From the NCBI GenBank assembly GCA_041485905.1, contig JBGPKK010000001.1, forward strand, positions 38,141 through 102,140: DNA of 64,000 nt, in the 5' to 3' direction. The stretch is from Vicinamibacteria bacterium. GTDB lineage: Bacteria > Acidobacteriota > Vicinamibacteria > Vicinamibacterales > CAVVIG01. Position numbers and translations under genes: made by a program. Under the pieces are notes generated by a model that saw only the letters and a program-made list of their open reading frames with translations, was not told where the DNA came from and made no database searches. Of this stretch, positions 4,690 through 56,651 are shown piece after piece (the stretch's first letter is position 1; the number at the start of each line of letters is the position of its first letter).

Positions 4690-5375
4690 CGTACCAGATC
4701 CACCGGCGGCGGGACAAAGGCGTCATGAGCAGACTCCCACGGCAGCGCCGCTTCCGCTGGCGCGTGCATACCGTCAGCCCGGTTCGGAAGCTCGCTCGCG
4801 CGCGAGCGGTCGCCGTGCAGGAAGCGATCGAGCATCGCGTATCCATGCTCGCTGGCGGCCGACTCCGGATGGAACTGGACACCGATAACGGGATGCGTGC
4901 GGTGTTCGACCGCCATAATCTCGCCGTCGTCTTTGGCGGAAGCGATTACGCGCAGCGATTCCGGCAGTGAGGCACGCGCGATCACGAGCGAGTGGTAACG
5001 CGCGACCCGCAGCGGCGACGGCAGCCCGGCAAAGATGCTCGAACCGTCATGGACGACAGGCGAGGTTCTACCGTGCAACGGGCGGCCGGCCCGCACGATA
5101 TCGGCGCCGTACGCGGCGCCGATGCACTGGTGGCCGAGGCACACGCCGAGAACAGGTATCGTCGCGCCGAAGCGCAGGACGACATCGGTCGAGATCCCGG
5201 CTTCGAGCGGCGAACAGGGGCCGGGCGACAGAATGATGTGGCTCGGCGAGAGCGTCTCGATCCCCTCCAGCGTCACCTCGTCGTTCCGGCGCACGACGGC
5301 CTCACCGCCCAGTTCGCGCACGTATCGCGCCAGGTTGTGGACGAAAGAATCGTAGTTGTCGATGAGAAGGATCAT
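4686..5375 (-). CDS. pabA: aminodeoxychorismate synthase, glutamine amidotransferase component
   Basis: Start at MILLIDNYDSFVHNL (Met139 of ORF 4686..5789). GVCLGHQ catalytic Cys and FHPES. ATGA overlap with the pabB stop. Confidence 0.9.
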   Translation of the reverse strand: MILLIDNYDSFVHNLARYVRELGGEAVVRRNDEVTLEGIETLSPSHIILSPGPCSPLEAGISTDVVLRFGATIPVLGVCLGHQCIGAAYGADIVRAGRPLHGRTSPVVHDGSSIFAGLPSPLRVARYHSLVIARASLPESLRVIASAKDDGEIMAVEHRTHPVIGVQFHPESAASEHGYAMLDRFLHGDRSRASELPNRADGMHAPAEAALPWESAHDAFVPPPVDLVR

Positions 5376-6931
5376 GCGGGCACCGCGAGGACGTCGATCA
5401 TACCGCGCGCCTTGTCGAGTGTCTCGCGGTACTCCTGTTCGGGGTCCGAGTCGGCCACGATCCCGCCGCCGGCGCTGAAGTACACCCGGCCGCCGCGTGC
5501 GACGGCGGTGCGGATGGCGATGCTGCTGTCGAGCGGCCCGGTGACGCTCCAGTATCCGATGGCGCCGCAGTACACGCCCCGCGCCGATGGCTCCAGCTCG
5601 GCGATGATCTCCATCGCGCGCACTTTCGGGGCGCCGGTAATGGAGCCACCGGGAAACGCCGCACGCAGCAGATCGGCCCCGTCCGCGCCGGGCGAAAGCT
5701 CCCCGACCACGGTCGAGACCAGGTGGTGGACGGTGGCGTAGCGCTCGAGCGCGAACAGCTCGGGCACGCGGACGGTGCCGGGAGCGCACACGCGGGATAA
5801 GTCGTTTCGCATCAGGTCGACGATCATCAGGTTCTCGGCGCGATCCTTCGCGCTCTCGGTAAGCACCACGCCGAGCGCCGCGTCATGCTCGGGTCCCACG
5901 CCGCGTGGACGGGTCCCCTTGACCGGGCGCGTCTCGACGTGCCCGCCGACGTCCACTTGCAGGAAGCGCTCGGGCGACGCGCTGAGCACGACCGCGTCCG
6001 GAAAATCCAGATAGGCGGCGAAGGGAGCAGGGTTCCGCGTGCGCAGCCGCCGATAGAGCGCCCACGGCGGCTCCTCGAGCGGCGCGTCAAAGCGCTGAGA
6101 CAGGTTGGCCTGAAAAATGTCGCCGGCGAAGATGTATTCACGCACGCGGGCGACCGCATCGAGGTAACCCCTGTGCGTGAACGACGATCGAATCGCAAGG
6201 TGCGGGTCCCACCATCCACCCTCGACCGGATAGGCTGGCGCCGGGGCGTCCCGTGCAGTCGTCAGTCGACGGTCGTCAGTCGACAGTCGATCGACGACCG
6301 ACGACTGTCGACTGTCGACTGTCGACTGTAACCGCGCCCGCACGTCGGCCGCGCGTCGAGCGGCGCGGCGAGCGCGGGCCGCTGGTGATGTTTCCGGTAG
6401 GCCGGTGGAAATCAACCATGCACGGGATGCGTCGTGATCCCATGCCAGCACCCAGTCGTACACGCCGAAGACGAGGTCGGGCAGCACGAGATCATCGTGG
6501 CGTGGCGCCGGAAGGCGCTCGAGCGCGCGGCCCCAGTCATATGCCACGTAGCCGGCGGCGCCTCCCTGAAAGGGCGGCAGCCCAGGCACCGGATCAGCAG
6601 CGTGCGGGGCGAGCCATCCACGAACGGCGGCGAGCGCGTCACCTGCGACGAAGGGCGTGGTGATGGCCGGCAGCCCGCTGCGCATCTCGAGGCAATCGGT
6701 CCGCGTCCCTTTGCTGCGCACGACGGCCACCGGATCGGCGACGAGAAAGGAATAGCGGCCAAGACGCGTTCCCGGCGCTGCGCTGTCGAGAAACAGGCGA
6801 TACGGAAGTCCCTCGAGCCGTTCGCAGCAGCTCGAGGGATCGGGCGGTGGAACCAGTTCCTCGACGAGCGGAACGACGTTCAAGATACCCTCAGCGGTAA
6901 GTGTGAGGTCTGAAGTCTCAAGAGTGCGCAC
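5372..6931 (-). CDS. pabB: aminodeoxychorismate synthase component I, with a repeat-encoded in-frame insert
   Basis: ORF track. YIFAGDIFQANLSQRF, PFAAYLDF, GTRPRG and SITGAPKVRAMEIIAELEPSARGVYCGAIGY are chorismate-utilising-enzyme motifs. Residues about 202-225 (QSTVDSRQSSVVDRLSTDDRRLTT) are encoded by the heptamer array at 6256-6328. Confidence 0.9.
   Translation of the reverse strand: MRTLETSDLTLTAEGILNVVPLVEELVPPPDPSSCCERLEGLPYRLFLDSAAPGTRLGRYSFLVADPVAVVRSKGTRTDCLEMRSGLPAITTPFVAGDALAAVRGWLAPHAADPVPGLPPFQGGAAGYVAYDWGRALERLPAPRHDDLVLPDLVFGVYDWVLAWDHDASRAWLISTGLPETSPAARARRAARRAADVRARLQSTVDSRQSSVVDRLSTDDRRLTTARDAPAPAYPVEGGWWDPHLAIRSSFTHRGYLDAVARVREYIFAGDIFQANLSQRFDAPLEEPPWALYRRLRTRNPAPFAAYLDFPDAVVLSASPERFLQVDVGGHVETRPVKGTRPRGVGPEHDAALGVVLTESAKDRAENLMIVDLMRNDLSRVCAPGTVRVPELFALERYATVHHLVSTVVGELSPGADGADLLRAAFPGGSITGAPKVRAMEIIAELEPSARGVYCGAIGYWSVTGPLDSSIAIRTAVARGGRVYFSAGGGIVADSDPEQEYRETLDKARGMIDVLAVPA
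6256..6328. repeat. Palindromic heptamer array (CAGTCGA-type arm followed by TCGACTG-type arm) inside pabB
   Basis: cagtcgt cagtcga cggtcgt cagtcga cagtcga | tcgacga ccgacga ctgtcga ctgtcga ctgtcga ctg. cagtcgacagtcga and tcgactgtcgactg are perfect reverse complements. Confidence 0.9.
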
Positions 6932-6965
6932 AGTGCAGACTTCAAACTTGAGACGTGAGACACGC

Positions 6966-8414
6966 TTACGGCTCCCGCTCGTTTGGATTCCGCCCGCTCT
7001 GCCGTGCCGTGTTCTGCGTCAGCCGCACGTGCGCGGACTTGTCCTCGTCTGGCGGCGTGAGATATCCCCACGACAACGCCCCTTCCTGGCGATAGGTCTT
7101 GCCAAGCGTCACCGCGAGGCTGGCGCGCGCCAGTTCCTTACCCAGGTAAAAAGCGTGCGTCGGTTCGTTGACGTCGAGCTGCGCGAAGATGGCCTGCAGA
7201 TCCGTGCCGCGGACGAAGCGATCGCTGTTCAGCACGGTGATCGCCTCGTGGTCGGTGAAGATGCGGAAATTGGGATCGGTGATGCCGGACTGCAGCGCGC
7301 GGAGCTCGTCTTCAGTGAAGGTGAGCACGGCCGGATCCTTCACCGTGACGAGGCGGTCGTCCACACCTTTGGGGATCGTGGGTTGTGTGACCGCGTAGTG
7401 CATGAGCCGTCGCGCCACATCCACTTCGCGCACGGCGCCGCGCGCCCATGGGATGACTTCTGTCGTGAGCACCGTGCGCACGCCCAGTTCCTGGCAGACG
7501 GCGATCAGCAGAGCGTTCACGCCGGTCGAGTCGGCCGCGGTGAGCTCGGTGAGGTTGCCGATTCCCATCAGCATCTCCGCATCCGGATACCGTCGCCGCA
7601 CCTCAGCGTAGCGCTCGAGTGACGCCATGAAACCGAAGCCGATCGGCTCCAGGATCGGATCGATCAGGCACGGGACGCCCCACCGCATGAGCTTCTCGAG
7701 ACTGGGGTCCAGCGTGTCCAACGCGGCGCCGAGATCGGGCACCACGACCACGCGTGCGCCGGTGCCGGCGAGGTCGCGCGCGGTCTCGATGTTCGAGCGG
7801 TTCACGCTCAGCACGAGCTCGGCTCCAGCCGCGACCGCCGTGCGGATCTCGTCCGCGTCGAACGTATCGACGCTCACGCGCATCCCGGCCGCGGTGAGCT
7901 CGCCGACGACGTCGCCCAGCGCGGGGAAAGCCAGACCGGGGGTGCACCCGATGTCGATCACGTCGGCGCCAGACAGACGGAAATAATCCGCCGCGGCGCG
8001 CAGGGCCTCGCGCGACAGCCTTGGCGCATTGTTGATCTCGGCCAGGATTTCGATGTCCCAGGCGCCGTATTCGCGTGTCGCCGATGCCCGACCGAAGTGT
8101 TGCGGGATCTCGCGCAGGTCCTTGGGCCCTTTCTCCACCCGCACGCCGAGCTTCTCGCCGATCACCTGCGGGGACCCTTCGCACAGCCCTGGGATCAGCA
8201 CCAGGTCCGTGCCCTCCGGCACGTCCTGCCGATCAAGGTTGCGCGCGATCCAGTCGGTCGTCATGAGCGCCGCGACCGTGATCCGGAGCACGCTGACGTC
8301 GTACGCAAAGGGCGGCGCCATCTCGGCGAGGACGCGGCGGAGCGCCGGCTCGGCGAGTCGGCCGGTGACGAACAGCACGCGGCGCGACTCGGTCAGCGGG
8401 CTGGGGCTCTCCAT
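6966..8414 (-). CDS. dihydropteroate-synthase-like pterin-binding protein (H4MPT biosynthesis type)
   Basis: Start at MESPSPL (Met100 of ORF 6966..8711), ATGA overlap with the upstream stop. GADVIDIGCTPG is a pterin-binding-domain motif. Length and flanking domains fit the long DHPS-like proteins of H4MPT islands. Confidence 0.8.
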   Translation of the reverse strand: MESPSPLTESRRVLFVTGRLAEPALRRVLAEMAPPFAYDVSVLRITVAALMTTDWIARNLDRQDVPEGTDLVLIPGLCEGSPQVIGEKLGVRVEKGPKDLREIPQHFGRASATREYGAWDIEILAEINNAPRLSREALRAAADYFRLSGADVIDIGCTPGLAFPALGDVVGELTAAGMRVSVDTFDADEIRTAVAAGAELVLSVNRSNIETARDLAGTGARVVVVPDLGAALDTLDPSLEKLMRWGVPCLIDPILEPIGFGFMASLERYAEVRRRYPDAEMLMGIGNLTELTAADSTGVNALLIAVCQELGVRTVLTTEVIPWARGAVREVDVARRLMHYAVTQPTIPKGVDDRLVTVKDPAVLTFTEDELRALQSGITDPNFRIFTDHEAITVLNSDRFVRGTDLQAIFAQLDVNEPTHAFYLGKELARASLAVTLGKTYRQEGALSWGYLTPPDEDKSAHVRLTQNTARQSGRNPNEREP

Positions 8415-34290: not shown

Positions 34291-35916
34291 TTAGACCGTC
34301 CCGATGACCTCCGGTCGCCGGATCCGTTCCATCTCCACCGGATAGTTGTCGAAGGACATCGTGTAGACCTTCTGGAACACCGGACGCAAATACTCCGTGA
34401 TGTGCTCGTCGAACGGGGGCTGAACCAGGAACTGCCGTCCGTTGCTGACCGAGCGGATCTCGCCGTCCTCGACCACGACTTCCCCGCTCTTGATCACGTA
34501 GCGCGGATACTCGAACATCAGGCTCGGATCCGGGTTCGCGTGATACAGCGCCACATCCGCGTCCGCGCCCACACCCAGGTGACCTTTCTGGGTGAGGCCC
34601 AGCGCGCGCGCCGGGCCCGCGGACGTGATGATGGCGATGTCGGACAGCGTGTACTTTCGATCCAGATCCGCCAGAACGATCCGCTTCTGCGCCTCCTCCG
34701 GCAGCCTGTTCACGCACTCGCGCCGGTACTCCACGTCCATCAAAAGACGGATCAGCTCCGGGTATCGCCAGAAACACGCCCCGTTGGGATGATCCGTCGT
34801 CAGGAAGATCCGCCAGGGATCGGTGATGAGGAGCAGCAGTTCCAATCCGACTGCCCACTGGATGGCGTTGACCAGCTTGTGCTCTTTGTACACGTAGGGA
34901 ACGATCCCGCATCCGGTCTCATTCTCCACGTCGAGGTTGCCCCACTTGTGGCCGGTGAGCTGATAGAGGACGTGCTGCCACGGGCCGTCGGCGGTGATCG
35001 TCACGGTGTTGCCGAACAGGATCGCCCCCGCGTCGGTCGTGAAGTTCGTATGCGTGTTGAAGTACTCGGCGACAGTGGCCGCTTCCGAGCGCATCGAGCC
35101 CCAGTCGTCTCCACCGTAGGAGTGGAATTGCAGGTGCGCGAGATGCGCCCGACGCCCCTCCAGGACCTTCATCGTCTCGATCGTCGTCGTGAAGTTGCCC
35201 GGAGCGCCGAGGTTGTTGCAGTGGATGTGGAGCGGGTGCGGCAGACCCAGATCGTCGATGATGGTCGCGAGGTCCGAGATGATCCTGGCCGGCGTCACTT
35301 TGCTGTACCCGTCAATCGATTCGAACAGCTTCTTGGCGTCGTGCCCGTACTTCCAGTTCACGACGCCCCCGGGATTGACTGCCTTGACGCCGTACGCCTT
35401 GGCCGCGCCGATCAGCCACGCCACGACGTGCCTGGCGCGTTCCAGTTCGCCCGCCTCCAGCAGGTCCAGCACGATTTCGTTGTTGGCCATCAACACGAGC
35501 GTGGACTTGTCGACGATGGGCGTGTCGTGCAGCTCTTCGTGCGTGTGTCTCGCAGAGAGCACCGGCATGGCGGCCTCGTTCACCGTCGTCCAGCCCATGC
35601 CCGCGTACAAGTACCCGGTGGCGAAGGTCGTGGGGGTGATGCCGCCGAGACCGGCACGGAACTCGGGCGTGTGCACGAACGGCAGCCCACGCCGCATGTG
35701 CTCGGGCGTCAGGCCGCGCGCGAAATTCAGCGCGGCTCCGGCCACGTGGGTGTGGACGTCGACGCCGCCGGGGAATACGACCAGGCCGGTGGCATCGATC
35801 GAGCGGCCGCCTTCGACCTGAGACACGATGCGGCCGTCGGAGATGCAGACGTCCTTGACGACGCCGTCGATCCCGTTGGCCGGATCGTAAACCTTCCCGC
35901 CTGTTATGCGCAGCAT
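34291..35916 (-). CDS. fwdA: formylmethanofuran dehydrogenase subunit A homologue (amidohydrolase)
   Basis: ORF track. MLRITGGKVYDP...GLVVFPGGVDVHTHVAG (HxH metal site). Confidence 0.9.
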   Translation of the reverse strand: MLRITGGKVYDPANGIDGVVKDVCISDGRIVSQVEGGRSIDATGLVVFPGGVDVHTHVAGAALNFARGLTPEHMRRGLPFVHTPEFRAGLGGITPTTFATGYLYAGMGWTTVNEAAMPVLSARHTHEELHDTPIVDKSTLVLMANNEIVLDLLEAGELERARHVVAWLIGAAKAYGVKAVNPGGVVNWKYGHDAKKLFESIDGYSKVTPARIISDLATIIDDLGLPHPLHIHCNNLGAPGNFTTTIETMKVLEGRRAHLAHLQFHSYGGDDWGSMRSEAATVAEYFNTHTNFTTDAGAILFGNTVTITADGPWQHVLYQLTGHKWGNLDVENETGCGIVPYVYKEHKLVNAIQWAVGLELLLLITDPWRIFLTTDHPNGACFWRYPELIRLLMDVEYRRECVNRLPEEAQKRIVLADLDRKYTLSDIAIITSAGPARALGLTQKGHLGVGADADVALYHANPDPSLMFEYPRYVIKSGEVVVEDGEIRSVSNGRQFLVQPPFDEHITEYLRPVFQKVYTMSFDNYPVEMERIRRPEVIGTV

Positions 35917-36000
35917 TGGGGAAATTGGGAATTAAGAATTAGGAATTCAGAATTCAGAATTCGAGCCACGAATTCCTAATTTCGAATTCTGAATTCATAA
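35917..36000. repeat. A+T-rich palindromic heptamer array filling the whole fwdB-fwdA intergenic space
   Basis: gaattaa gaattag gaattca gaattca gaattcg agcc acgaatt cctaatt tcgaatt ctgaatt cataatt. gaattcagaattcga and tcgaattctgaattc are perfect inverted repeats. Contains several GAATTC cores. Confidence 0.9.
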
Positions 36001-37344
36001 TTACGCGATTGCCGCGCGGACGTGCGTCTCGGGCGACCAGGCAGGCTTCGCGGCCACCGCCTCGCGGATGCGCCGGACGACCTCTTCGTCGGTCGGATAC
36101 GGCGACTTGAGCGCCGGCCGAAGCGGCAGGGGTATTTCGTCCATGCGATACGCAGTCCCCGGCGCGCTGATACCTGTGACCGCCGTGGTGATGTGCACGC
36201 GGGACAGGCGGCTCGTGTGAGTCACCTTGGGATCCAGCACGATCGTGGGAATGCGAGCCAGGTGATCGATGCCCGGCTGCGGCATCGTCGCTCCCGGATC
36301 CGCGCCGAGGATGAGCGCGGCGTCGTTGTCGCCGCGGACGATCAGGTCCACGGTCGAGAACTCCCCCGGATTGAAACGGGGGTAGCCCCGACTCAAGCTC
36401 ACACCGAACGGGTAGCCGGTCGACCAGCGCAGGACCATGTCCGATCCGGTGACGTTGCCGTGCCCTCGCATCGGCATGCACACGAACTTGGTGAACGCGT
36501 TCAGCTCCGCGGCCAGCGAGAGCACGCCCGCCGAGTTCATGTGCTTTCCACGGGTCATCGAGAGCCCCATGCCGAAGAAGATCACGCCGAATTTTGCGCG
36601 CTTCATTCGGTTGACGAGGTCCTGGAGTTGATCGACCGAGAGTCCGGTTTCCGCCACGCTCTCGGCATTGACCCTCTGGTTCTTGACAAGCGCGCGCAAG
36701 GTGGTGAGAACCTCGAAGTCCTTGCCCGGCCGAATCTGCAGGAAGAGGTCCGCAGCCTTCACGCTGGGCGTTTCGCGGATGTCCACCAGGACCATGAAGC
36801 GTCCCTTGCGCCCTTCCGGCACGAACCTGCCCTTCTGGGTCAGCGTGTATTTGGTGAAGTGCCGCGGGTGGCATTCCGCCGGGTTGCCGCCCCAGTAGAT
36901 GATGAAGTCGGCCCGATTCTTCACTTCGCCGAGCGTGCATGTAATCTTGCCACCCAACTGGGCGGCTATCTCAGTGGGGCCGTGTCAAAGCGAGGTGTGG
37001 CTGTCGACCACACCCCCGATCAACTCAGCCAGTGCCACGGCTTCCCGCTGGGCCTCGCACGTGATGTTGCTGAGTCCGTACACCAGTGGCATGTTGGCGG
37101 CATACAGGTAGTCGGCCGCGGCTGCGACGGCCGCGTCGAGAGTGGCCGGCTTCCCGTCGATCAGCGCGTCTGGAAACAGACGCTCCGCCGTGTGGTGTTT
37201 GAACCACGACTCGCCGAGACTGCAGGCGTTCTTGGCCTTGACGATGCGATCGCCTTCGGTGTGCAACTCGATGTCGTCACAGACGCATCCGCAGAACGTG
37301 CACGTGGCGTTGGGCACGACGTTGCTCGCAACGTTGAGGGTCAT
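36001..37344 (-). CDS. fwdB: formylmethanofuran dehydrogenase subunit B with an in-frame TGA (probable selenocysteine) at 36985-36987
   Basis: ORFs 36985..37482 (from MTLNV, Met47) and 36001..36957 are in the same frame, separated only by TGA plus 9 sense codons: ...GGVVDSHTSL-TGA-HGPTEIAAQLGGKITC.... The N-terminus has CTFCGCVCDD...C (Fe-S-like). The TGA is codon 120 and is followed by His. Confidence 0.75.
36953..36978 (-). promoter_or_regulatory. Candidate bacterial SECIS-like hairpin downstream of the fwdB UGA
   Basis: mRNA reads UGA CACGGC CCCACUG AGAUAGCCGCC CAGUUGGG: a 7-bp stem with one bulged U and an 11-nt loop, starting 7 nt after UGA. Folded by eye only. Confidence 0.3.
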
Positions 37345-46218: not shown

Positions 46219-48590
46219 GCTCCCGAATTTTTGGCTCAGGCATCCGGCGGCGGGAAGATCCGCGGCTGATTACCGGGACCGCGTTGTACACCGACGATCT
46301 GACGCTGCCGGCGATGGTCCACGCGGCCATGCTGCGCAGCCCGCACGCCTACGCGCGCATCACGAGGATTGACGTCAGCCGCGCGAAAGCGGCGCCGGGC
46401 GTGCTGGCCGCCTACACGGCCGCGGACATCGACGCGCTGAAGCCGGTGCCGTGCGCGTGGCTGCTGCCGAACGCGAACCTCAAGATCGCCGGCTACCCGT
46501 GCATGGCCAGGGACACCGTCCGCTACGTCGGCGACATCGTGGCGGTCGTCGTCGCCGAGACCGCGTATCAGGCGTACGACGCGCTCGATCTCCTCGAGGT
46601 GGACTACGACGCGTTGCCCGCAGTCACCGATCCAAAGGCAGCGGCCCAGCCCGGCGCGCCGCAGCTGCACGCCGACATACCAAACAACGAGGCGTTTCAC
46701 TGGGTGGTGGCTGGCGGCGATATCGACGCCGCCTTCAAGAACGCTGAAGTCATCGTCAAGGAGCGCATCGTTCAGCAACGGCTCATTCCCAACGCGATGG
46801 AGCCACGGGCCGCGCTCGCGCAGTGGAGCGGCGCGTCGGGAGAGCTGACGCTCTGGAACACGACCCAGAACCCCCACATCCTCCGCTACCTCACCTCGGT
46901 CGTCACCGGCGTGCCGGAAGACAAGCTGCGTGTGGTCGCCCCTGAAGTCGGCGGCGGGTTTGGCAGCAAGATCGCGGCGTATCCGGCGGACTTCATCACC
47001 TGTTTCTGCGCGATGACCTTGAATCGGCCGGTCAAGTGGAACGAAACGCGCAGCGAGAACTATCAGGCGACAACGCACGGCCGCGATCACATCCAGGAGG
47101 TCGAGCTCGCCGCGAAGAAGGACGGGACGATCCTCGGACTGCGCGCCGAGATCTGGGCGGGCATGGGCGCGTATCTGTCGACGGCGGCGCCCGGCATCCC
47201 GACGATTCTGCACGGCCTGATGCTGTCGGGCGTGTACAACCTGCCCGCCGTCAAGGAACACGTCCACGGCGTATATACCAACGCCACGCCGGTCGAGGCG
47301 TATCGCGGCGCCGGACGACCCGAAGCGACGTTCATGATCGAACGCATGATGGACAAGCTGGCGAGCACGATCGGGATGGATCCGGTTGACCTGCGGTTGA
47401 AGAACATGATCCCGCGCTTCGAGAACGGGCACACGGTCATCACCGGGCTCACCTACGACAGCGGCGACTACCCGGCGGGATTGAAGAAGATCCTGGATCA
47501 CGTGAAGTACAAGGAGCTGCGCAAGGAGCAGGCGGACGCGCGCAAGAAGGGACGCTACATCGGCATCGGCGTGGCGTCCTACGTCGAGATCTGCGGACTC
47601 GGGCCGTCACAGGTCGCCGGCGCGATCGGCTTCCAGGGAGGTCTGTGGGAAAGCGCCATCGTGCGCGTCCATCCCACAGGGAAGGTTCACGTCTTCATCG
47701 GCGCGTCGCCGCACGGTCAAGGCGAAGAGACGACGTTCGCCCAGCTCGTCGCCAGCGAGATCGGCGTCGATACCAACGACGTCAAGGTGTTTCACGGCGA
47801 CACCGACGTCACCCCGATGGGATGGGGCACCTACGGCAGCCGGACGACCGCGGTCGGCGGTGCGGCCCTGATCCTCGCGACGCGCAAGGTCAAGGAGAAG
47901 GCCAAGGTCATTGCCGCGCACCTGCTCGAAGCCTCGGTCGAGGACATGGACTACGCCGACGGCAGGTTCTTCGTGAAGGGATCGCCCGACAAGGCGAAGA
48001 CGATTCAGGAGGTCGCGCTGATGGCGCACCTGTCGTGGAACATGCCGAAGGACGTCGAGTCGGGACTCGAGGCGTCGATGTTCTACGACCCGCCCAACTT
48101 TACGTATCCGTTCGGATCGCACGTCGCGGTGGTCGAAGTCGATCCGGAGACGGGACAGATCGATCTCAAGCGGTACGTCGCGCTCGACGACTGCGGCCCG
48201 CAGATCAATCCGGTCATCGTCGAAGGCCAGGTGCACGGCGGCGTCGTGCAGGGTCTGGGTCAGGCGCTCTGGGAAGAAGCGGTGTACGACGAGAACGGGC
48301 AGCTGGTCACGGGGTCGATGCTCGACTACGCCCTGCCCCGCGCCGACACGCTCTGCGACATCGAGGTGATTTCGACGGTCACGCCGTCGCCGCATCATCC
48401 GCTTGGACTCAAAGGCGTTGGCGAAGCCGGCACGATCGCGTCGACCGTGACGATGTACAGCGCCGTGATGGACGGGCTCGCGCCCCTGGGCGTCCAGCCG
48501 CTTCGGATGCCGATGACGGCCGAACGCGTGTGGCGGGCCATTCAAGAGGGCAAAGCGCAAAGGGCAGAGGGCAAAGCGCAGAAGGCATAG
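46215..48590 (+). CDS. coxL: Molybdopterin large subunit, form-II CoxL-like (AYRGAGR active-site loop)
   Basis: Start at MSSRIFGSGIRRRED (Met61 of ORF 46035..48590), ATGA overlap with coxS. EVGGGFGSK; VEAYRGAGRPEA rather than the AYRCSFR of form I. The last about 14 residues are encoded by the heptamer array. Confidence 0.85.
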   Translation: MSSRIFGSGIRRREDPRLITGTALYTDDLTLPAMVHAAMLRSPHAYARITRIDVSRAKAAPGVLAAYTAADIDALKPVPCAWLLPNANLKIAGYPCMARDTVRYVGDIVAVVVAETAYQAYDALDLLEVDYDALPAVTDPKAAAQPGAPQLHADIPNNEAFHWVVAGGDIDAAFKNAEVIVKERIVQQRLIPNAMEPRAALAQWSGASGELTLWNTTQNPHILRYLTSVVTGVPEDKLRVVAPEVGGGFGSKIAAYPADFITCFCAMTLNRPVKWNETRSENYQATTHGRDHIQEVELAAKKDGTILGLRAEIWAGMGAYLSTAAPGIPTILHGLMLSGVYNLPAVKEHVHGVYTNATPVEAYRGAGRPEATFMIERMMDKLASTIGMDPVDLRLKNMIPRFENGHTVITGLTYDSGDYPAGLKKILDHVKYKELRKEQADARKKGRYIGIGVASYVEICGLGPSQVAGAIGFQGGLWESAIVRVHPTGKVHVFIGASPHGQGEETTFAQLVASEIGVDTNDVKVFHGDTDVTPMGWGTYGSRTTAVGGAALILATRKVKEKAKVIAAHLLEASVEDMDYADGRFFVKGSPDKAKTIQEVALMAHLSWNMPKDVESGLEASMFYDPPNFTYPFGSHVAVVEVDPETGQIDLKRYVALDDCGPQINPVIVEGQVHGGVVQGLGQALWEEAVYDENGQLVTGSMLDYALPRADTLCDIEVISTVTPSPHHPLGLKGVGEAGTIASTVTMYSAVMDGLAPLGVQPLRMPMTAERVWRAIQEGKAQRAEGKAQKA

Positions 48591-48650
48591 GGCAAAGCGC
48601 AGAGGGCATAGGGCAAAGGGGTTTTTGCCCTTTGCCTTTTGCCTTTTGCA
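48548..48650. repeat. Heptamer array pair: about 10 x GGGCAAA-type units, then 3-4 x TTGCCCT-type units (hairpin)
   Basis: gggcaaa gcgcaaa gggcaga gggcaaa gcgcaga aggcata gggcaaa gcgcaga gggcata gggcaaa ggggttt ttgccct ttgcctt ttgcctt ttgcact. Confidence 0.9.
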
Positions 48651-51618: not shown

Positions 51619-52773
51619 TTTCTCTTCCACAACATCGTCCACTTCGGCCGGCTCCTGCACGCGCTTGGCCTGGACGTGCATGCCGGACGCATGCTCGATG
51701 TGGCCGGGGCGCTGGAGCACATCGACATCGGACGCCGCTCGGACTTTTGCGTCGCGCTGCAATCTCTTCTCATTCACCGCCCGCAGGATCTGCCGATCTT
51801 TGACGAGGCGTTCCGCGTGTTCTGGAAGCCGCCGCCAGGTGAATGGGCATCGACCGATCTGCGGGCCATGGGTGAACAGCGCCGCTCCGGAGCGCCCCAA
51901 GTCGATGTACCAGCGGCACAACCCGATTCACTGGACGATCCCTCGCTTCCCCTGCTCGCTGAGACCGTCCAGCGCATCGCGCCGAGAGGTTACAGCTCGC
52001 AGGAGGTATCGCGCGTCAAGGACTTCGAGCAGTTCACGGAGGCCGAGCTCGAAGCCGCGAAGGCGATGATCGCAGAGCTGACGTGGGACCTTGGGACGCG
52101 ACAGACTCGCCGCTGGAAGTCCGGCGACGGCAGGGTACTGGATTTCAGGAAGGTCATGCGCCGCAACCTTCGCTACGGCGGCGAACCGCTCGCGCTGCCG
52201 ACACGCGAGCGAGCGTCACGGCGCCGGCCGCTCGTGCTGCTCTGCGACGTCAGCGGATCGATGGAGCGGTACGCGCGCATGCTGCTGCATTTCATGCATA
52301 GTCTGGCCGCCGGCCTCGAACACGTCGAGGCGTTCGTGTTCGCGACGCGGTTGACCCGGATCACACGCGATCTCTCCGCGCGCGGCGGCCGCGAATCGCT
52401 GCCCACGATCCCGCGGCGCGTGCCCGACTGGGCCGGGGGCACGCGCATCGGAGACGCGGTGCGGACGTTCAACGTGCAGTGGGCGCGCCGCGTCATGGGA
52501 CATGGACCAGTCGTGCTGTTGATCTCTGACGGGTGGGATCGCGGGGAACCCGAGGTGCTCGCCCGCGAGATGAGCCGCCTCCAGCGAAGCTGTCATCGTC
52601 TCATCTGGCTCAACCCGCTGCTCGGATCGGCGGACTATCAGCCGCTGACGCGCGGGATGCAGGCGGCGCTACCGTTCGTCGACGATTTCCTGCCGGTGCA
52701 CAATCTGGCCAGCCTGGAAGCGCTTGCGCGGCACCTCAACAAACTGCCGGCGCGCCGCGCGGTCAGGGCATAG
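51613..52773 (+). CDS. coxE: VWA-domain protein (CoxE-like)
   Basis: ORF track (TTG start). LVLLCDVSGSM MIDAS motif and VVLLISDGWD. Confidence 0.85.
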   Translation: MPFLFHNIVHFGRLLHALGLDVHAGRMLDVAGALEHIDIGRRSDFCVALQSLLIHRPQDLPIFDEAFRVFWKPPPGEWASTDLRAMGEQRRSGAPQVDVPAAQPDSLDDPSLPLLAETVQRIAPRGYSSQEVSRVKDFEQFTEAELEAAKAMIAELTWDLGTRQTRRWKSGDGRVLDFRKVMRRNLRYGGEPLALPTRERASRRRPLVLLCDVSGSMERYARMLLHFMHSLAAGLEHVEAFVFATRLTRITRDLSARGGRESLPTIPRRVPDWAGGTRIGDAVRTFNVQWARRVMGHGPVVLLISDGWDRGEPEVLAREMSRLQRSCHRLIWLNPLLGSADYQPLTRGMQAALPFVDDFLPVHNLASLEALARHLNKLPARRAVRA

Positions 52774-52835
52774 GGCATAGGGCAAAGGGCAAAGGGCAGA
52801 GGGCAGAGGGCAAAGGGCAGAGGGCAGAGGGCAAA
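52766..52835. repeat. Heptamer array, 10 x GGGCAxA (left arm of the four-helix-bundle cassette)
   Basis: gggcata gggcata gggcaaa gggcaaa gggcaga gggcaga gggcaaa gggcaga gggcaga gggcaaa. Contains the coxE stop codon. Confidence 0.95.
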
Positions 52836-52839
52836 AGAC

Positions 52840-53217
52840 TCACACTGATGGGGATCCGCGGTACGGTGAGGCACGAGCCGTTCTGATGGCGCTGATGACC
52901 ATCGCTCGAAGTTGGTTCGCTTCGCCGAGTTCCCATTCGGCTTCATCCTTCGTCACGACCGCAATCTTCAGAGCGACGCGAAGCCACCAGATGGTCTCGC
53001 GCGCCTCCTTTCGGGAAATACTCAGCTTTGCAATGAAATCCGGCTTCGACTGGCCTTCTTGCGCTTCTTCTGCGTTGGAGCCGATCGAGGTGCCGCAACG
53101 CATTAGCTGTGACGCCACGTGTCGAGCCGCTGGCCCGCGCGACCAGATCTTCTCCGACAGCTTCAAGATGCAGCAGGCAAATTCGAACGCTCGCTCGCAG
53201 ATGATGGAGTGGGTCAT
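52840..53217 (-). CDS. four-helix-bundle protein (23S rRNA intervening-sequence protein family)
   Basis: Start at MTHSIICERAFEF (Met9 of ORF 52840..53241). SIGSNAEEAQEGQSKPDFIAKLSISRKEARETIWWL matches that family's hallmark as I remember it. Confidence 0.75.
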   Translation of the reverse strand: MTHSIICERAFEFACCILKLSEKIWSRGPAARHVASQLMRCGTSIGSNAEEAQEGQSKPDFIAKLSISRKEARETIWWLRVALKIAVVTKDEAEWELGEANQLRAMVISAIRTARASPYRGSPSV

Positions 53218-53346
53218 GACGCGCTGGAGTTCAAGGTTCACGCCACCGGAAATGTCACGAAAGGCTGGTAAAAACAGATGCCGGCATTGGCGGTTTGAAA
53301 TTCATACATCCCCCCGCGCACCGCGGAGATCTCTTTTTGTGCGATC

Positions 53347-53381
53347 TGCCCTTTGCCCTTTGCCCTTAGCCCTTAGCCCTT
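53347..53381. repeat. Heptamer array, 5 x TGCCCTT/AGCCCTT (right arm, inverted relative to 52766-52835)
   Basis: tgccctt tgccctt tgccctt agccctt agccctt. Contains the coxG stop codon. Confidence 0.95.
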
Positions 53382-53803
53382 TCCTGAAGGCACCCGAAGA
53401 ACCGGTCCATCATCATCTTCGAGACCGTGCCGAGCAGACGCTGACCAACCCGCGCCATGAGACCGCCGACCTGCCCCTGACCTTTTACGTTCACGATCGT
53501 CGTGTCGTTCTGTTCCACGAGCTCGACCGTCGCCTCGCCCTTGACAAAGCCGGCCTTGCCGGTGCCTTCGACAACCAGTCGATAGGAGTGCGGCGGCCGT
53601 TTGTCGAGAATCGCGACCGTCCCCGTGTACTGACCGCTGACCGCCGCGACGGCCAAGGTCAACGACGCTCGATATTGATCCTCGCCAATCGGCTCCAACC
53701 GATCGCAACCCGGCAGACATTCCGCAACGACGATGGGATCGATGAGCAGATTCCAGACCGCGGTGGGAGGGGCGGCGAAGGTGTAAGAAGCGGCAAGATC
53801 CAT
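53366..53803 (-). CDS. coxG: SRPBCC-fold CoxG-like protein
   Basis: ORF track. VWNLLIDPIVVAECLPGCDRLEPIGEDQYRA...VSGQYTGTV...GGLMARVGQRLL fits CoxG. Confidence 0.8.
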   Translation of the reverse strand: MDLAASYTFAAPPTAVWNLLIDPIVVAECLPGCDRLEPIGEDQYRASLTLAVAAVSGQYTGTVAILDKRPPHSYRLVVEGTGKAGFVKGEATVELVEQNDTTIVNVKGQGQVGGLMARVGQRLLGTVSKMMMDRFFGCLQERAKG

Positions 53804-53812
53804 GACGGGGAT

Positions 53813-54610
53813 CTACGGCTTCGTCACGGTGTACTCTGCCGGAATCTTGAATACCTCGTCCGCAATCGGCGCCAGGGAAACTTCGGTGACCTTGCTGGTC
53901 AGCTTCATCGGCAGCTTGAACGCGTCAACGAGCGGCGAACCCCCTTCGAGGGAGACCTCGAAGTCGGTGAGGCACGTGATGCCTTCAGCGCGGGCGAATA
54001 GCTGGTTCAGATCGACGCTGCCCGAAGACTGCGCCGTGCCGGGAAGGTTCGCCGCGATGGCGCGCTTCTGAAACGCGACATACTCCGCAGCACCAGGCGC
54101 GTTGTTCGACACCCACACGACGCCGTTGGACGTCAGCCGGGCGTCCTTGAACGTTTCGGCTGCTTCCTTGGACATCTGCCGCTGTGCCATGTCGACCGAC
54201 ATCGATACTTTGAACTCGTCGCATCGCTGGCCGAAGAATGTCTGCGACCGTCCCGTTGGCTCGAGAGTGAGGTCGACGTTCGGCATCGTTTCCCGCGCCT
54301 CAGCGGTCGGCGCATCGGACACCTGCGCGATTTTCTGCGGGCCGATCAGATGGATCACCCGACCCGTCGTCAGGTCGACAATGGTCGAAATCGTCGCGCC
54401 CTGGGACTCGGAATCCGTACGCGACTTCGTACCCTTGATGCGCGTGATCGCACGCGCTGTGCTGATGTTCGGCGCGCCTTCCATCGTGAGGGTCGTTGTC
54501 ATGGTAATCGTGACGTCGGCGCGAAGCACGGTCGAGCACATCGCGATCAGGGCAAGCGCTATCCATGACGACTGTCGACTGACGACGGTCGACTGTCGAC
54601 TGCTGATCAT
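53813..54610 (-). CDS. secreted protein or lipoprotein, unknown function
   Basis: ORF track. N-terminus MISSRQSTVVSRQSSWIALALIAMCSTVLRA. The charged n-region is encoded by the heptamer half-array. Confidence 0.65.
   Translation of the reverse strand: MISSRQSTVVSRQSSWIALALIAMCSTVLRADVTITMTTTLTMEGAPNISTARAITRIKGTKSRTDSESQGATISTIVDLTTGRVIHLIGPQKIAQVSDAPTAEARETMPNVDLTLEPTGRSQTFFGQRCDEFKVSMSVDMAQRQMSKEAAETFKDARLTSNGVVWVSNNAPGAAEYVAFQKRAIAANLPGTAQSSGSVDLNQLFARAEGITCLTDFEVSLEGGSPLVDAFKLPMKLTSKVTEVSLAPIADEVFKIPAEYTVTKP
54567..54602. repeat. Heptamer half-array (cgactgt cgactga cgacggt cgactgt cgactgc), same flavour as the pabB insert
   Basis: Read directly. Lies at the junction of the CHRD gene stop and the downstream gene start. 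Confidence 0.9.
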
Positions 54611-55047
54611 CTTGATGCTGCGTCGGGTAACAACCAGCCCCAGAGGTTTCCCTCGGGCGCCTTCTCGCTGTGTATCTGTATGTAGAAGCGGCTGCTCTTG
54701 ACAGCCTGAACCAGTTCCGGCGTCAGCATGAACGTGCCGGCGATCGTCCCGCTCGTGGCCTTCGTGACGGTGAGATCGAAAATCACCGGTCCGCGCACCC
54801 CACGCGGGCCGAGATGAATCTGCGCAATCGTCGCGGCGCTCTTCATCCCGTCGAACGTGCCGCGAACCGACAGGCTGCGCCCGGTCAGCGTCGCGGTAAC
54901 CGAACCTGATCCGGTGATCCCATCCCGCGTGCTCGCCACCGGCACCGGCGAGAGGCGCGCCTTGTACGTCTCGCTCTGAGCCGAGGTTATCGGCCCGAAC
55001 AACAGAGTCGTCGTCACGATCAGGACCGCAATACGACGTCGCTGCAT
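54607..55047 (-). CDS. CHRD-domain protein, secreted
   Basis: ORF track. Signal peptide; AQIHLGPRGVRGPVIFDL and FYIQIHS....GNLWG are CHRD-like. Confidence 0.65.
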   Translation of the reverse strand: MQRRRIAVLIVTTTLLFGPITSAQSETYKARLSPVPVASTRDGITGSGSVTATLTGRSLSVRGTFDGMKSAATIAQIHLGPRGVRGPVIFDLTVTKATSGTIAGTFMLTPELVQAVKSSRFYIQIHSEKAPEGNLWGWLLPDAASR

Positions 55048-55081: not shown

Positions 55082-55170
55082 GGGCAGGTGGGTCAGGTGC
55101 GCCGGGTAGGTAACCCACCCGACCTACACGACCTACCCCGACTCACCCGACCTACCTGCCCTACCCGACC
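55082..55170. repeat. G+C-rich inverted repeat array (GTAGGTC/GACCTAC flavour) just downstream of the amidase stop
   Basis: gggcaggtgggtcaggtgcgccgggtaggtaa / cccacccgacctacacgacctaccccgactcacccgacctacctgccc. The outer 8 nt gggcaggt and acctgccc are perfect complements. Confidence 0.8.
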
Positions 55171-56651
55171 AGCTTGGGTTTCCGCGTATGCCAGTCGGTC
55201 GCCTGCTCGTAGGCGTGCGCCAGCGCGAGCACGGTCGACTCGGCAAAGGGCGCGCCGCTGATTTGAAGACCGATCGGCAGCCCCGACGCCGAGAAGCCGC
55301 ACGGAATCGAGATCGTCGGCAGACCGAGGATGTCGAAGACCGCGTTGTTGTTCCCGCCGCCACCGGCCGCGCCCGGTGCGCCCAATTTCGGCGGCGGCGT
55401 CTTCATCGTCGGCGTGATGAGGAGATCGACGTTGACGAACACACTCTTGATTTCGCGCCGGAGTGTTTCCACCTGACGCCGCGCCCGCACGTAGTCGGCC
55501 GCCTTGGCCTGCATCGATCCCTCGAGCGATCGTCGGGTGCCCGGCTGGTACTTCTCGGGCGACTCCGTAATCCACTTGGTGTGATAAACGAGCGCTTCGG
55601 GGCCCCAAATGGTCGCCGGATTCGGGGTCGCCGGCAATTGGAGGTCGGTCGGCGTTCCCGCCGTGAGCCGGCGCAGCACGTCGATCGCCTGGTCCACAGC
55701 TTTGGCGACCTCGGGATCGAGGTTGTCGTAGAACGGCTTGCGCGGAACGGCAAGCCTTAACCTCCCTGTTGGAGCCTTGAGCGCGCGCGTGTAATCGGGC
55801 ACGGCGACCTCAAAGGTCGTGGGATCGAGGTCGTCGTACCCGGCAATGATATTCATCATCACGGCGACGTCCTCAACGGTTTTACACATCGGCCCGACGT
55901 GGTCCAGCGTCCACGACAGCGTCATCACGCCGCGCGTGCTGACGCGGCCGTAGGTGGGCTTCAATCCCACGATGCCGCAATGCGCGGCGGGCATCCGGAC
56001 CGAACCTGCCGTATCGGTGCCGAGCGCCGCGAAACAGAGATCGGCGGCGACCGCGACGCCTGGGCCCCCCGACGATCCGCCGGTCACGTACTCGAGGCCC
56101 CACGGATTGTGCATCGTGCCGTACGCCGTCACCGTCGATGATCCGCCGTATGCGAACTCGTGAAGATTCAGTTTGCCCAGGAGAATCGCGCCGGCGTTCT
56201 TCAACCGTCGCGCGACTTCCGCATCCTCCGTCGGAATGCGATCCTTGAATAGATCGCTTGCGCCGGTGGTGCGCACGCCCGCGGTGTCCATGTTGTCCTT
56301 GAGCGCGATCGGGACGCCGTGGAGCGGCCCTCGCCATTTCCCCCGCTGCTGTTCCGCCTCCATCTCGCGCGCCGCGGCGAGCGCCTGATCGGGCACGACG
56401 GTGATGAACGCGTTGAGCGCGGCGTTGTATTTCTGGATCCGATCGAGGCACGCGCGTGTGAGATCGACGGGCGAGGCGTCCTTGCTGCGAATCAGGTCGA
56501 CGGCCTTCTTCAGGCTGAGCGACGCGAGGTCCGCCGCGGGAGCCGCAGCAGCAATCCGGCTTAAGCCGTACGACGACTCTGCGAGTGACGGCGCAAACGC
56601 GAAAGAGCCGACCGCGGCCGCACCCGACGCGAGAAATTCTCTTCGTTTCAT
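55161..56651 (-). CDS. amidase-signature-family amidase, Tat-exported
   Basis: ORF track. MKRREFLASGAAAVG twin-arginine signal; GGSSGGPGVAVAA; KDNMDTAGVRTT. Confidence 0.85.
   Translation of the reverse strand: MKRREFLASGAAAVGSFAFAPSLAESSYGLSRIAAAAPAADLASLSLKKAVDLIRSKDASPVDLTRACLDRIQKYNAALNAFITVVPDQALAAAREMEAEQQRGKWRGPLHGVPIALKDNMDTAGVRTTGASDLFKDRIPTEDAEVARRLKNAGAILLGKLNLHEFAYGGSSTVTAYGTMHNPWGLEYVTGGSSGGPGVAVAADLCFAALGTDTAGSVRMPAAHCGIVGLKPTYGRVSTRGVMTLSWTLDHVGPMCKTVEDVAVMMNIIAGYDDLDPTTFEVAVPDYTRALKAPTGRLRLAVPRKPFYDNLDPEVAKAVDQAIDVLRRLTAGTPTDLQLPATPNPATIWGPEALVYHTKWITESPEKYQPGTRRSLEGSMQAKAADYVRARRQVETLRREIKSVFVNVDLLITPTMKTPPPKLGAPGAAGGGGNNNAVFDILGLPTISIPCGFSASGLPIGLQISGAPFAESTVLALAHAYEQATDWHTRKPKLVG

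Follow-up and report, generated by a model that had tools for sequence, protein, structure and literature searches.

A heptanucleotide tandem array as the likely hypervariable linker of PabB in an acidobacterium

Several dispersed families of tandem heptanucleotides, called STRR, are present in the single genome of Calothrix PCC 7601, where their function is unknown. To our knowledge, there is no case of an STRR array that forms an in-frame protein linker. At phase-variable SSR loci, for example those of Haemophilus influenzae, the gain or loss of units changes expression or reading frame. REP and REPIN elements are dispersed hairpin repeats, including inverted doublets, that are found at gene ends and inside operons, and REPs are single imperfect palindromes of 20–40 nt that are mobilised by RAYT transposases. 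Heptamer arrays have also been described for Xanthomonas (GGGAATC) and Nostoc (GGGGAYT), scattered over each genome in numbers that range from dozens to hundreds (Rehm et al. 2015, PMC4692102). These arrays are mostly intergenic and lie near the 3' end of the upstream ORF, 7–11% of them overlap ORFs, and both their length and their sequence vary between close relatives (PMC4692102). The STRR heptamers of heterocystous cyanobacteria are cited in that paper, as is the hypothesis that the preference for 7 nt reflects a polymerase footprint (PMC4692102). In the 23S rRNA intervening sequences of Coxiella and Leptospira, an S23p (PF05635) ORF is located within a long inverted stem, and in Coxiella two to three tandem GACAGAT heptamers, whose copy number varies by strain, lie just upstream of the ORF (PMC4990558).

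Here we describe a heptamer array within the pabB gene of an acidobacterium, and hereafter we use ‘window’ for the whole 64-kb stretch of DNA that was analysed. Like the Xanthomonas and Nostoc heptamers, the window arrays consist of tandem 7-nt units, over-represent period 7 and include inverted pairs that converge and can fold into stem-loops. However, their units are not G4-forming and differ by locus (CAGTCGA, GAATTCA, AGGGCAR), and the pabB array is carried by an acidobacterium, mid-gene and in frame, where it constitutes a whole protein linker at a site that is occupied by different units in the orthologous genes of sister lineages. The array has the head-to-tail 7-nt tandem structure of SSR/STRR-like arrays. 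Its position within a gene is atypical of such arrays, which are mainly intergenic (the STRR arrays being, in addition, cyanobacterial), although intragenic arrays are a known minority in Xanthomonas, and therefore we regard it as an atypical member rather than an excluded one. Phase-variable tracts are long and perfect, belong to surface or restriction-modification genes, where they occupy the promoter or the 5' coding part, and have on/off alleles; none of these traits was found for the pabB array. REP and REPIN elements are likewise dispersed and hairpin-forming, but they are not tandem 7-nt arrays. Thus, the pabB array looks like an already known kind of repeat, one of many in its lineage, and not a special switch. 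We judge it likely that the segment is a heptanucleotide microsatellite, of a period-7 class that is abundant in the lineage, which forms the hypervariable linker of PabB and is carried as a tolerated passenger.

The pabB gene (Table 1) codes for a protein that is 100% identical over 503 aa to a database entry (P0001), and the open frame around it (5372..6931, minus strand) extends beyond the called start to position 6931 and reads through the array. Its score with the TIGR00553 pabB model (369.1 bits) is above the curated equivalog threshold of 328.4. The closest solved structure is that of Escherichia coli PabB (1K0E, E = 2e-102), and the motif TRPVKGTRPRG, with its catalytic-type lysine, aligns to TRPIKGTLPR of the E. 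coli enzyme. A GATase gene (pabA) and an Aminotran_4 gene (pabC-like) are located directly downstream. Together with a DUF6513 dihydropteroate-synthase-like gene and a pterin-4a dehydratase gene nearby, they agree with the pABA/H4MPT setting proposed in an earlier sequence-only reading of this DNA. With both domains in place, a score above the cut-off and these two downstream partners, pabB is predicted to be intact. On the opposite strand, an ORF at 6253..6663 overlaps the pabB frame, which is well supported, and for that reason it is regarded as spurious.

The sequence-only reading had described about 72 nt of CAGTCGA/TCGACTG units inside pabB, and repeat finding bears this out with an array of 73 nt, or 24 codons plus 1 nt. 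Tandem Repeats Finder reports an array of period 7 at positions 6256–6326 (consensus CAGTCGA), with 82% matches over 10.1 copies; 3.9 perfect tandem units stand at its 5' end. Translation of 6328..6257 gives exactly the peptide that had been claimed, and Pfam places it, as also anticipated, between the N-terminal domain and Chorismate_bind, with the conserved core YIFAGDIFQANLSQRF found 39 residues further on (about 40 had been stated). The frame is indeed kept across the array despite the 7-nt unit, and the arithmetic behind the warning that a gain or loss of one unit would shift it is correct. The two arms of the array, each 34 nt long, are 85% complementary and are separated by 5 nt. The 14-bp perfect stem noted previously is available to the RNA: the 14-mer CAGTCGACAGTCGA is present at 6277 on the plus strand, and its reverse complement occurs at 6308 and 6315. 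When up to two mismatches are allowed, this 14-mer has 15 matches in the window versus 1.04 expected, a number reached by none of 100 shuffles. The mRNA-sense strand is predicted to fold at −56.6 kcal/mol (z = −6.8), which was equalled by none of 200 shuffled sequences.

Table 1. Coordinates of pabB, its heptamer array and other period-7 features, numbered from the first nucleotide of the window
Feature	Position	Strand	Remarks
pabB (aminodeoxychorismate synthase component I)	5372..6883	-	503 aa from a TTG start, per public gene call
Chorismate_bind (PF00425) domain of PabB	5411..6172	-	Pfam; residues 254-507 of the 519-aa ORF
Heptanucleotide array, about 10.4 units	6256..6328	-	Encodes PabB residues 186-209 (QSTVDSRQSSVVDRLSTDDRRLTT), essentially the entire variable linker
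3' arm of the array (coding strand)	6256..6289	-	TCGACTG-type units; the array in inverted copy
5' arm of the array (coding strand)	6295..6328	-	Direct units: CAGTCGA three times, then CAGTCGT, CGGTCG
Anth_synt_I_N (PF04715) domain of PabB	6416..6838	-	Pfam; residues 32-172 of the 519-aa ORF
Spacer 5' of pabB	6884..6965	-	Low GC (52%); degenerate period-7 inverted repeat seen by eye
GAATTCA/GAATTAG hairpin array	35920..36002		AT-rich, 31% GC; fold z = -5.3
AGGGCAA/AGCGCAG array, then inverted TTTTGCC units	48545..48649	+	Hairpin without internal ORF; z = -4.4
AGGGCAR array, 10 units, downstream arm of cassette	52765..52835		Starts on the last coxE codons
Four-helix-bundle / 23S rRNA intervening-sequence protein gene	52840..53241	-	PF05635, TIGR02436
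TGCCCTT array, 5 units (reverse complement of AAGGGCA), upstream arm of cassette	53347..53382
Second CAGTCGA array, 5 units	54566..54602	-	In-frame, 5'-terminal part of DUF4412 gene 53813..54610

A linker is present at the array site in all 119 close orthologues of PabB, where it is 17–43 aa long (median 23, versus 27 in the window protein). These linkers are hypervariable and unrelated in sequence but similar in length. The earlier description of the array as an insertion therefore holds only in comparison with E. coli PabB (1K0E), relative to which the inter-domain region is about 44 aa longer; against the 119 close orthologues there is no net insertion. As judged from these alignments, the array is the PabB linker itself, in a lineage-specific form, rather than something added to it. 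Its start falls on the linker's ‘L-Q-S’ codons, which are widely conserved. The variability of the sequence, together with an AlphaFold2 model, suggests that the linker is presumably disordered: residues 189–215 are modelled as coil with pLDDT below 50. The model was made from a 30-sequence alignment, and its mean pLDDT of 51 did not justify a fold search; it lends weak support for coil only.

A search of genome contigs yielded approximately eight useful close loci among the matches listed, most of which were distant PabBs. Orthologues carry heptamer arrays at the linker that are built from different units. The ortholog L081 (89% identical) also uses CAGTCGA, with all units in direct orientation, whereas the linkers of the sister lineages L082, L083 and L008 consist of CCAGCCY (about 13 units), GGACCAM (about 13 units, following its own inverted complement) and CCCCTGC (about five units), respectively. 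Among the other orthologues, eight linkers exhibit a 7-residue periodicity and none a periodicity of five or eight residues. Two further relatives (75–76% identical) have the array in decayed form (L164) or as just two to three units (L166). Given its presence in L081 and these short or decayed versions, the array is old within its own subclade.

Neither CAGTCGA nor its complement contains a stop codon in any frame, and the same holds in all six frames for every unit seen in PabB linkers, but not for the commonest intergenic units, AGGGCTG and AGGGCTT. As 3 does not divide 7, every frame of a perfect heptamer array yields one and the same cyclic peptide of seven residues. A stop-free array should therefore be tolerable in a linker, provided that its overall length leaves the codons beyond it in frame. 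One pair of orthologues is instructive in this regard. Proteins P0242 and P0119 are 100% identical over 505 aa, except that P0242 lacks GPRTTEKGPRTTDH. The difference, derived from gene coordinates and the protein alignment, is 42 nt, or six units, between genes of 1518 and 1560 nt with the same synteny. The change lies in the homologous GGACCAM array of a sister lineage and keeps the frame. The single-unit variation that the sequence-only reading had proposed to look for was not seen in the material covered, where this six-unit change is the sole one. The pabB array has the same copy number in two strains that differ by 0.3%, and differs in length and arrangement in L081. We infer that replication slippage alters the array and that, in intact genes, only changes by multiples of three units would survive; point decay and inversion are a second and a third route of change.

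Inversion also accounts for the hairpin. The 5' arm matches the start of the L081 array unit for unit. The reverse complement of the 3' arm agrees with the direct L081 array at 31 of 33 positions, with the variant units in the same order, while the unreversed 3' arm does not reach half of that score. Since the L081 array is entirely direct, the second arm of the window array is an inverted copy, and the hairpin thus results from half of the array being inverted relative to the sister lineage. The GTCGAC palindrome that is contained in every unit may have aided this event. Both the hairpin and the peptide sequence would then be by-products that arose without selection, and the array as a whole is probably neutral.

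Other period-7 arrays are abundant in this DNA. The 64-kb window holds six period-7 loci, compared with none in shuffled sequence, and tandem repeats of periods 4–6, 8–13 and 15 have no locus in it. The density of period-7 arrays per 100 kb is 12.5 in the window, 6.7 in close relatives and 0.1 in distant bacteria (1.36 Mb of distant PabB-bearing contigs among the matches listed), or roughly 100-fold higher in the host lineage than in the distant set. The lineage hosting this class is acidobacterial, probably within the Vicinamibacterales. A search of viral contigs for (CAGTCGA)n was uninformative, with three unrelated contigs of far lower GC content (45–55%).

The window arrays other than that of pabB sit at gene boundaries, where they intrude on coding ends, including the CoxL tail, the CoxG tail with its stop codon and the DUF4412 signal peptide. 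The GAATTCA/GAATTAG array fills the gap between the stop of one minus-strand gene (36001..36957) and the ATG of the next (34291..35916), and the AGGGCAA/AGCGCAG array covers the final 46 nt and the stop codon of a CoxL-like ORF. The second CAGTCGA array, 48 kb from pabB, is identical at 32 of 35 positions to 6256–6290, with variant units in the same order, and places MISSRQSTVVSRQSSW where DUF4412 proteins usually have an ‘MKR’ signal-peptide start. A 35-nt module common to pabB and this unrelated gene is not sufficiently explained by purely local slippage, and hints at copying between arrays.

Also within the window is a cassette (52765–53382) located between coxE and coxG, in which a PF05635 ORF lies inside inverted flanks. 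It resembles the 23S rRNA intervening sequences in this respect, except that the flanks are heptamer arrays and the location is not in rRNA. The gene has a GC content of 58.7% compared with 65.8% for the window, and the upstream array also encodes the last coxG codons and stop. Of 80 metagenome loci with PF05635 genes, most have heptamer arrays in inverted orientation on the two sides of the gene. Counted from the tblastn matches, an upstream array is present at 61 of 71 loci, a downstream array at 55 of 72 and both at 43 of 63, with strand polarity that is uniform in 73/73 and 66/67 cases. Gene limits redefined from ORFs were set aside for these counts because the arrays also read as open frames, so that many starts were misplaced. 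Such bracketing is more unusual than the pabB array. Beyond the note on Coxiella we found no published link between PF05635 and heptamers in literature whose coverage was incomplete, and its novelty is unproven.

These cassettes offer another way to view the pabB array, namely as an ORF-less relative of them that arrived, or was refreshed, by copying rather than by local slippage. Consistent with this reading are the near-uniform polarity of the arrays flanking PF05635 genes, the presence in the window of both a full cassette and an ORF-less AGGGCAR hairpin (48545–48649), the 35-nt module shared by two unrelated loci, and the filling of the pabB site by different units in different lineages. 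However, the unit CAGTCGA lacks the core of the cassette arrays (xAGGGCx, xATGGCx or xAGAGCx, with the G-rich arm first). Only 5 nt separate the pabB arms, with no PF05635 or TIGR02436 ORF between them, so that the array also differs from the 23S rRNA intervening sequences, in ORF content as well as in unit. Nor was any ORF remnant, target-site duplication or empty/filled pair found at pabB. Instead, the two to three units of L166 and the decayed array of L164 at the same codons fit growth and decay in place, and the array start coincides with the conserved ‘L-Q-S’ codons. We therefore give this origin of the pabB array a small chance. Similarly unlikely, in our view, is the broader proposition that the period-7 hairpin arrays, including the PabB linker and its DUF4412 twin, are ORF-less members of an undescribed cassette system spread by copying, whose full form would be a PF05635 (Avd/S23p-like) gene in the loop of an inverted-heptamer stem, an analogue of 23S rRNA intervening sequences that lies between protein-coding genes. 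If so, the abundance of heptamers in the lineage would reflect the activity of this system and not generic polymerase slippage, and arrays would occasionally be domesticated by genes, to serve as a linker, as the head of a signal peptide or as a C-terminal tail.

A regulatory role for the mRNA hairpin of about −57 kcal/mol, which might slow ribosomes between the two domains, giving a co-translational folding pause, or serve as an RNase III or other processing site that tunes pabB, is distinctly improbable. The structure is strong, non-random and positioned exactly at the domain boundary, a second lineage (L083) also carries a hairpin-forming array at its linker, and, by analogy, RNase III acts on the long stems that 23S rRNA intervening sequences form (PMC4990558). 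Nevertheless, the hairpin is not conserved among PabB orthologues: the fold z-score at the linker is −3.6 in L083 and −2.7 in L081, whose array is all direct, and the structure is weak or absent in L082 (−0.55) and L005 (+0.2). Moreover, the orthologous linkers are non-homologous and give no basis for covariation, and an Rfam scan of the whole window matched no family. A promoter and terminator scan of 5300–7100 placed no terminator-like site or T-run at the hairpin, and it is therefore not an intrinsic terminator. Programmed −1 frameshifting was likewise rejected because no slippery heptamer is present upstream of the hairpin.

Very improbable is the possibility that pabB is a contingency locus, in which slippage by single units would toggle the gene by frameshift and produce a reversible auxotrophy for the pABA/H4MPT precursor. 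The unit length is indivisible by three, perfect tandem units open the array on its 5' side, and copy number does vary in the homologous array of P0242 and P0119. Heptanucleotide repeats are also reportedly discussed in papers on H. influenzae phase variation. Yet the array is imperfect, with no long perfect tract, and lies mid-gene (residues 186–209 of 503) in a biosynthetic housekeeping gene rather than at the 5' end or promoter of a surface gene. It is also identical in the two strains noted above, and the only length change observed is in frame. No out-of-frame pabB allele was seen among the assembled, called genes and these two strains. All 120 database homologues are full length, a weak argument, as frameshifted genes escape full-length calling. 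There is thus no evidence for phase variation of the pabB array. Although repeats and palindromes mis-assemble easily and many contigs with heptamer arrays are short, an artefact of this metagenome-assembled genome is effectively refuted by L165, an independently sampled and assembled contig that is 99.68% identical over 4108 bp and has exactly the same linker and array, as well as by the CAGTCGA units of the related L081 and by the open, full-length gene.

As a presumably tolerated microsatellite, the pabB array of this soil acidobacterium provides a clean natural case of a non-triplet repeat in a housekeeping gene that is intact. When free of stop codons, a heptamer array specifies one peptide in every frame and so can supply a disposable, fast-evolving protein linker, and at this one site at least four heptamer units have been used for the linker, with a frame-preserving change in copy number. 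This bears on the origin of low-complexity linkers and also on annotation, since heptamer linkers may resemble frameshift-prone errors. The lineage enrichment and the stereotyped inverted bracketing of PF05635 genes touch on the old question of why heptamers are over-represented in some bacteria, and the bracketing bears on the nature of the widespread ‘23S rRNA IVS protein’ genes. A last observation concerns the spacer 5' of pabB, which gives a weak folding signal (z = −1.66). It is identical in L165; in L081 the two genes overlap and there is no such spacer.

The sequence-only reading described the heptamer repeat within pabB as a hairpin-forming array inserted in frame, and every detail of that description is confirmed by Tandem Repeats Finder, arm pairing, the perfect 14-mer, folding and translation. 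This 14-mer occurs once in the forward and twice in the reverse-complemented orientation with zero mismatches, and 15 matches are found in the window at two or fewer mismatches, compared with 1.04 expected. The array is predicted to fold in the mRNA at -56.6 kcal/mol (z = -6.8) and encodes the peptide QSTVDSRQSSVVDRLSTDDRRLTT, which forms PabB residues 186-209. The word ‘inserted’, however, holds only in a limited sense, because the linker that carries the array is present across PabB homologues.

The identity of the gene is well supported. Its product scores 369 bits against the NCBIfam pabB equivalog TIGR00553 (cut-off 328), combines an Anth_synt_I_N domain (residues 32-172) with a Chorismate_bind domain (residues 254-507), and has Escherichia coli PabB (1K0E, E = 2e-102) as its closest solved structure. 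Genes for a glutamine amidotransferase (pabA) and a class-IV aminotransferase (pabC-like) follow, and genes for a DUF6513/pterin-binding dihydropteroate-synthase-like protein and a pterin-4a dehydratase precede it. A public gene call with 100% identity to this PabB (P0001) starts at a TTG at 6883 and yields 503 aa. The spacer ahead of pabB contains a weak, degenerate period-7 inverted repeat (z = -1.7); the same spacer sequence is present in a near-identical contig from an independent metagenome (L165) and is missing from an 89%-identical orthologue locus (L081), where the two genes overlap.

Coordinates (window positions) of pabB, its array and other features of the window
Feature	Position	Strand	Remarks
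pabB ORF	5372..6931	-	open through the whole array segment
CAGTCGA array in pabB	6256-6326		period 7, 10.1 copies, 82% matches
Inverted arms of the pabB array	6256-6289 and 6295-6328		34 nt each, 85% complementary, 5-nt gap
Spacer, DUF6513 dihydropteroate-synthase-like gene to pabB	6884-6965		low GC (52%)
GAATTCA/GAATTAG hairpin array	35920-36002		31% GC in a 66% GC genome; z = -5.3
AGGGCAA/AGCGCAG array with inverted TTTTGCC units	48545-48649		hairpin, z = -4.4; no ORF inside
AGGGCAR x10, cassette array	52765-52835
PF05635/TIGR02436 four-helix-bundle ‘23S rRNA intervening-sequence protein’ gene (Avd-like)	52840..53241	-	GC 58.7% (window 65.8%)
TGCCCTT x5, cassette array	53347-53382		inverted relative to the AGGGCAR array
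Second CAGTCGA array	54566-54602		in frame, 5' end of DUF4412 gene
DUF4412 gene ORF	53813..54610	-

We aligned 30 close PabB homologues (76-89% identical) from Acidobacteriota metagenome-assembled genomes, and the stretch from the conserved helix ‘...RAAAVRERL’ to ‘APSYPVEGGWW’ is unalignable in all of them. Nevertheless, every one of 119 homologues except a truncated sequence possesses this linker, at 17-43 aa (median 23; 27 in the window). Given that the linker is always present and of similar length, the array is the linker itself rather than an addition to it. The inter-domain region is approximately 44 aa longer than that of E. coli PabB (residues 159-232 versus 156-185), and the linker thus characterizes this clade. 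The AlphaFold2 prediction for the protein is poor overall (mean pLDDT 51), although it places a helix with confidence at 167-186, after which residues 189-215 are coil with pLDDT below 50; as the coil coincides with the array-encoded residues, the model hints that these may be disordered.

Related linkers are built from several different units. The L081 linker comprises approximately 13 CAGTCGA units, all direct, with an 11-nt interruption, whereas others consist of approximately 13 CCAGCCY units encoding PAPSLQP repeats (L082), approximately 13 GGACCAM units preceded by their own inverted complement (L083), or approximately five CCCCTGC units (L008); the linker DNA of two further loci (L005 and L002) has no array. 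At the protein level, a 7-residue periodicity is evident in eight of the 118 other linkers and a 3-residue (9-nt) repeat in four, while periods of 5 or 8 are found in none. Four homologues (P0061, P0065, P0087 and P0103) have a linker of ERS/ERF triplets and no heptamer array. Elsewhere in PabB, one homologue (P0034) carries a 40-aa insert, ‘PADRLRQGYGGPPTCPPKLQWRRKLHEKEEAGHGE’, after ‘ECLDL’ (alignment columns 120-160), and smaller inserts are present in two other homologues (P0009 and P0012). The loop is a second insertion-tolerant site and may hold another repeat family.

The array is old in the CAGTCGA subclade rather than recently acquired, because two distant members (75-76% identical) retain it in shortened or degenerate form at the corresponding codons (CAGTCGT...TCGACTG TCGGCTG in L164; CAGTCGACTGTCGAC in L166). 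The first four to five units match L081 base for base, and the second arm, once reverse-complemented, matches the direct L081 array at 31 of 33 positions, with variant units in the shared order CAGTCrT CAGTCGA CGGTCGT CAGTCG; read as it stands, the same arm yields less than half the score. It follows that the hairpin results from inversion of half the array in either the window lineage or that of L081. We infer that such inversion is eased by the palindrome GTCGAC within every unit. Since L164 and L166, which are more distant than L081, hold both orientations, the arrangement seen in the window may predate that of L081.

The survival of the reading frame follows from the unit length. As 7 is not divisible by 3, each of the three frames of a perfect heptamer array yields the same cyclic peptide of seven residues, and a given unit has stops in all frames or in none. 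Neither strand of CAGTCGA, CCAGCCY or GGACCAM contains a stop, whereas the commonest intergenic units, AGGGCTG and AGGGCTT, are not stop-free. For a stop-free array, the frame downstream then depends on total length alone.

Collectively, we consider it likely that the array is a tolerated heptanucleotide microsatellite that acts as a disordered PabB linker and that slippage, decay and inversion reshape. It belongs to a known class of heptameric simple-sequence repeats and is atypically placed. In Xanthomonas and Nostoc, such repeats are over-represented at period 7, form convergent inverted pairs, and lie mainly in intergenic regions near the upstream ORF (ORF overlap 7-11%); polymerase slippage has been proposed as their origin (PMC4692102). 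The window arrays likewise show over-representation of period 7 and inverted pairs.

The main observation that falls outside the microsatellite explanation is a 35-nt module common to two loci. The second CAGTCGA array is identical to 6256-6290 at 32 of 35 positions, with variant units in the same order, and gives the DUF4412 signal peptide MISSRQSTVVSRQSSW in place of the ‘MKR’ head seen in approximately 30 homologues. A copied or mobile hairpin element could account for this, although we judge it unlikely for the pabB array, whose unit is not of the type found in the PF05635 cassette. A regulatory structure is improbable despite the stable predicted fold: z-scores at the linker across orthologues are -6.8, -2.7, -0.55, +0.2 and -3.6, so the hairpin is not conserved, an Rfam scan of the whole window gave no family match, and no terminator-type T-run follows the hairpin. 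Neither a regulatory role nor phase variation gained any support from the analysis.

A contingency switch is very improbable as well. The sole copy-number change observed distinguishes two proteins, P0242 and P0119, that are 100% identical over 505 residues except for GPRTTEKGPRTTDH, absent from P0242; these 14 aa correspond to 42 nt, or exactly six units, and the frame is kept (gene lengths 1518 and 1560 nt, respectively, with the same synteny). Frameshifted alleles would not appear among called full-length proteins, and therefore their absence is weak evidence. Moreover, the arrays are identical in two strains 0.3% apart, the window and L165. An assembly artefact is ruled out, as L165 matches the window at 99.68% identity over 4108 bp (13 mismatches, no gap) and throughout the linker.

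The cassette itself lies between coxE and coxG, and its upstream array supplies the last codons (RAKG) and TAA stop of coxG (53366..53803, minus strand). Among 80 metagenome loci of PF05635 homologues (L084-L163), chosen by protein alone, we identified 108 period-7 arrays. The 250 nt on either side of the ORF account for 15% of bases but for 99 of these arrays; other periods gave 0-7 arrays. Where sequence sufficed, arrays were present upstream in 61 of 71 loci, downstream in 55 of 72 and on both sides in 43 of 63. Upstream arrays are G-rich (73/73) and end a median of 118 nt ahead of the ATG, and downstream arrays are C-rich (66/67) and begin at the stop codon. Paired arrays tend to share their unit: the distance is 0-1 in 15 of 19 cases, compared with 34% when arrays from different loci are compared. 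Most contigs in the full set of PF05635 homologue hits are very short (0.5-2.5 kb), which fits with flanking repeats breaking metagenome assemblies, although only four of the 80 loci start or end within an array. The arrangement resembles the Coxiella 23S intervening sequence, in which two to three tandem GACAGAT heptamers, variable among strains, precede a homologous S23p ORF (PMC4990558). We found no description of the general association in the literature searched, of which coverage was partial, and it merits attention in its own right.

Apart from 7 and its multiple 14, no short tandem period occurs in the window: six loci have period-7 arrays, none has periods 4-6, 8-13 or 15, and shuffled sequences gave none. 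The pabB array is part of a class spread across this lineage, as period-7 density per 100 kb is 12.5 in the window and 6.7 in close pabB loci; the pabB neighbourhoods of distant bacteria (1.36 Mb in total) give 0.1. The other window arrays lie at gene boundaries and often provide terminal codons. For example, the AGGGCAA/AGCGCAG array encodes the last 15 codons (QEGKAQRAEGKAQKA) and stop of a CoxL-like molybdenum hydroxylase gene, and a CoxM-like gene starts 18 nt past it. The GAATTCA/GAATTAG array occupies the gap between two co-oriented formylmethanofuran-dehydrogenase-like genes, for a molybdopterin oxidoreductase-like protein (FwdB/FhcB-like) and an amidohydrolase (FwdA/FhcA-like). Two longer-period repeats were also noted: a 159-nt tandem duplication (approximately two copies, 82-90% matches) at the window start (1-352), and a 9-nt repeat, ACCTACCCG (approximately six copies, 74% matches), at 55113-55170, between a gene ending at 55047 and an amidase-like ORF (55161..56651).
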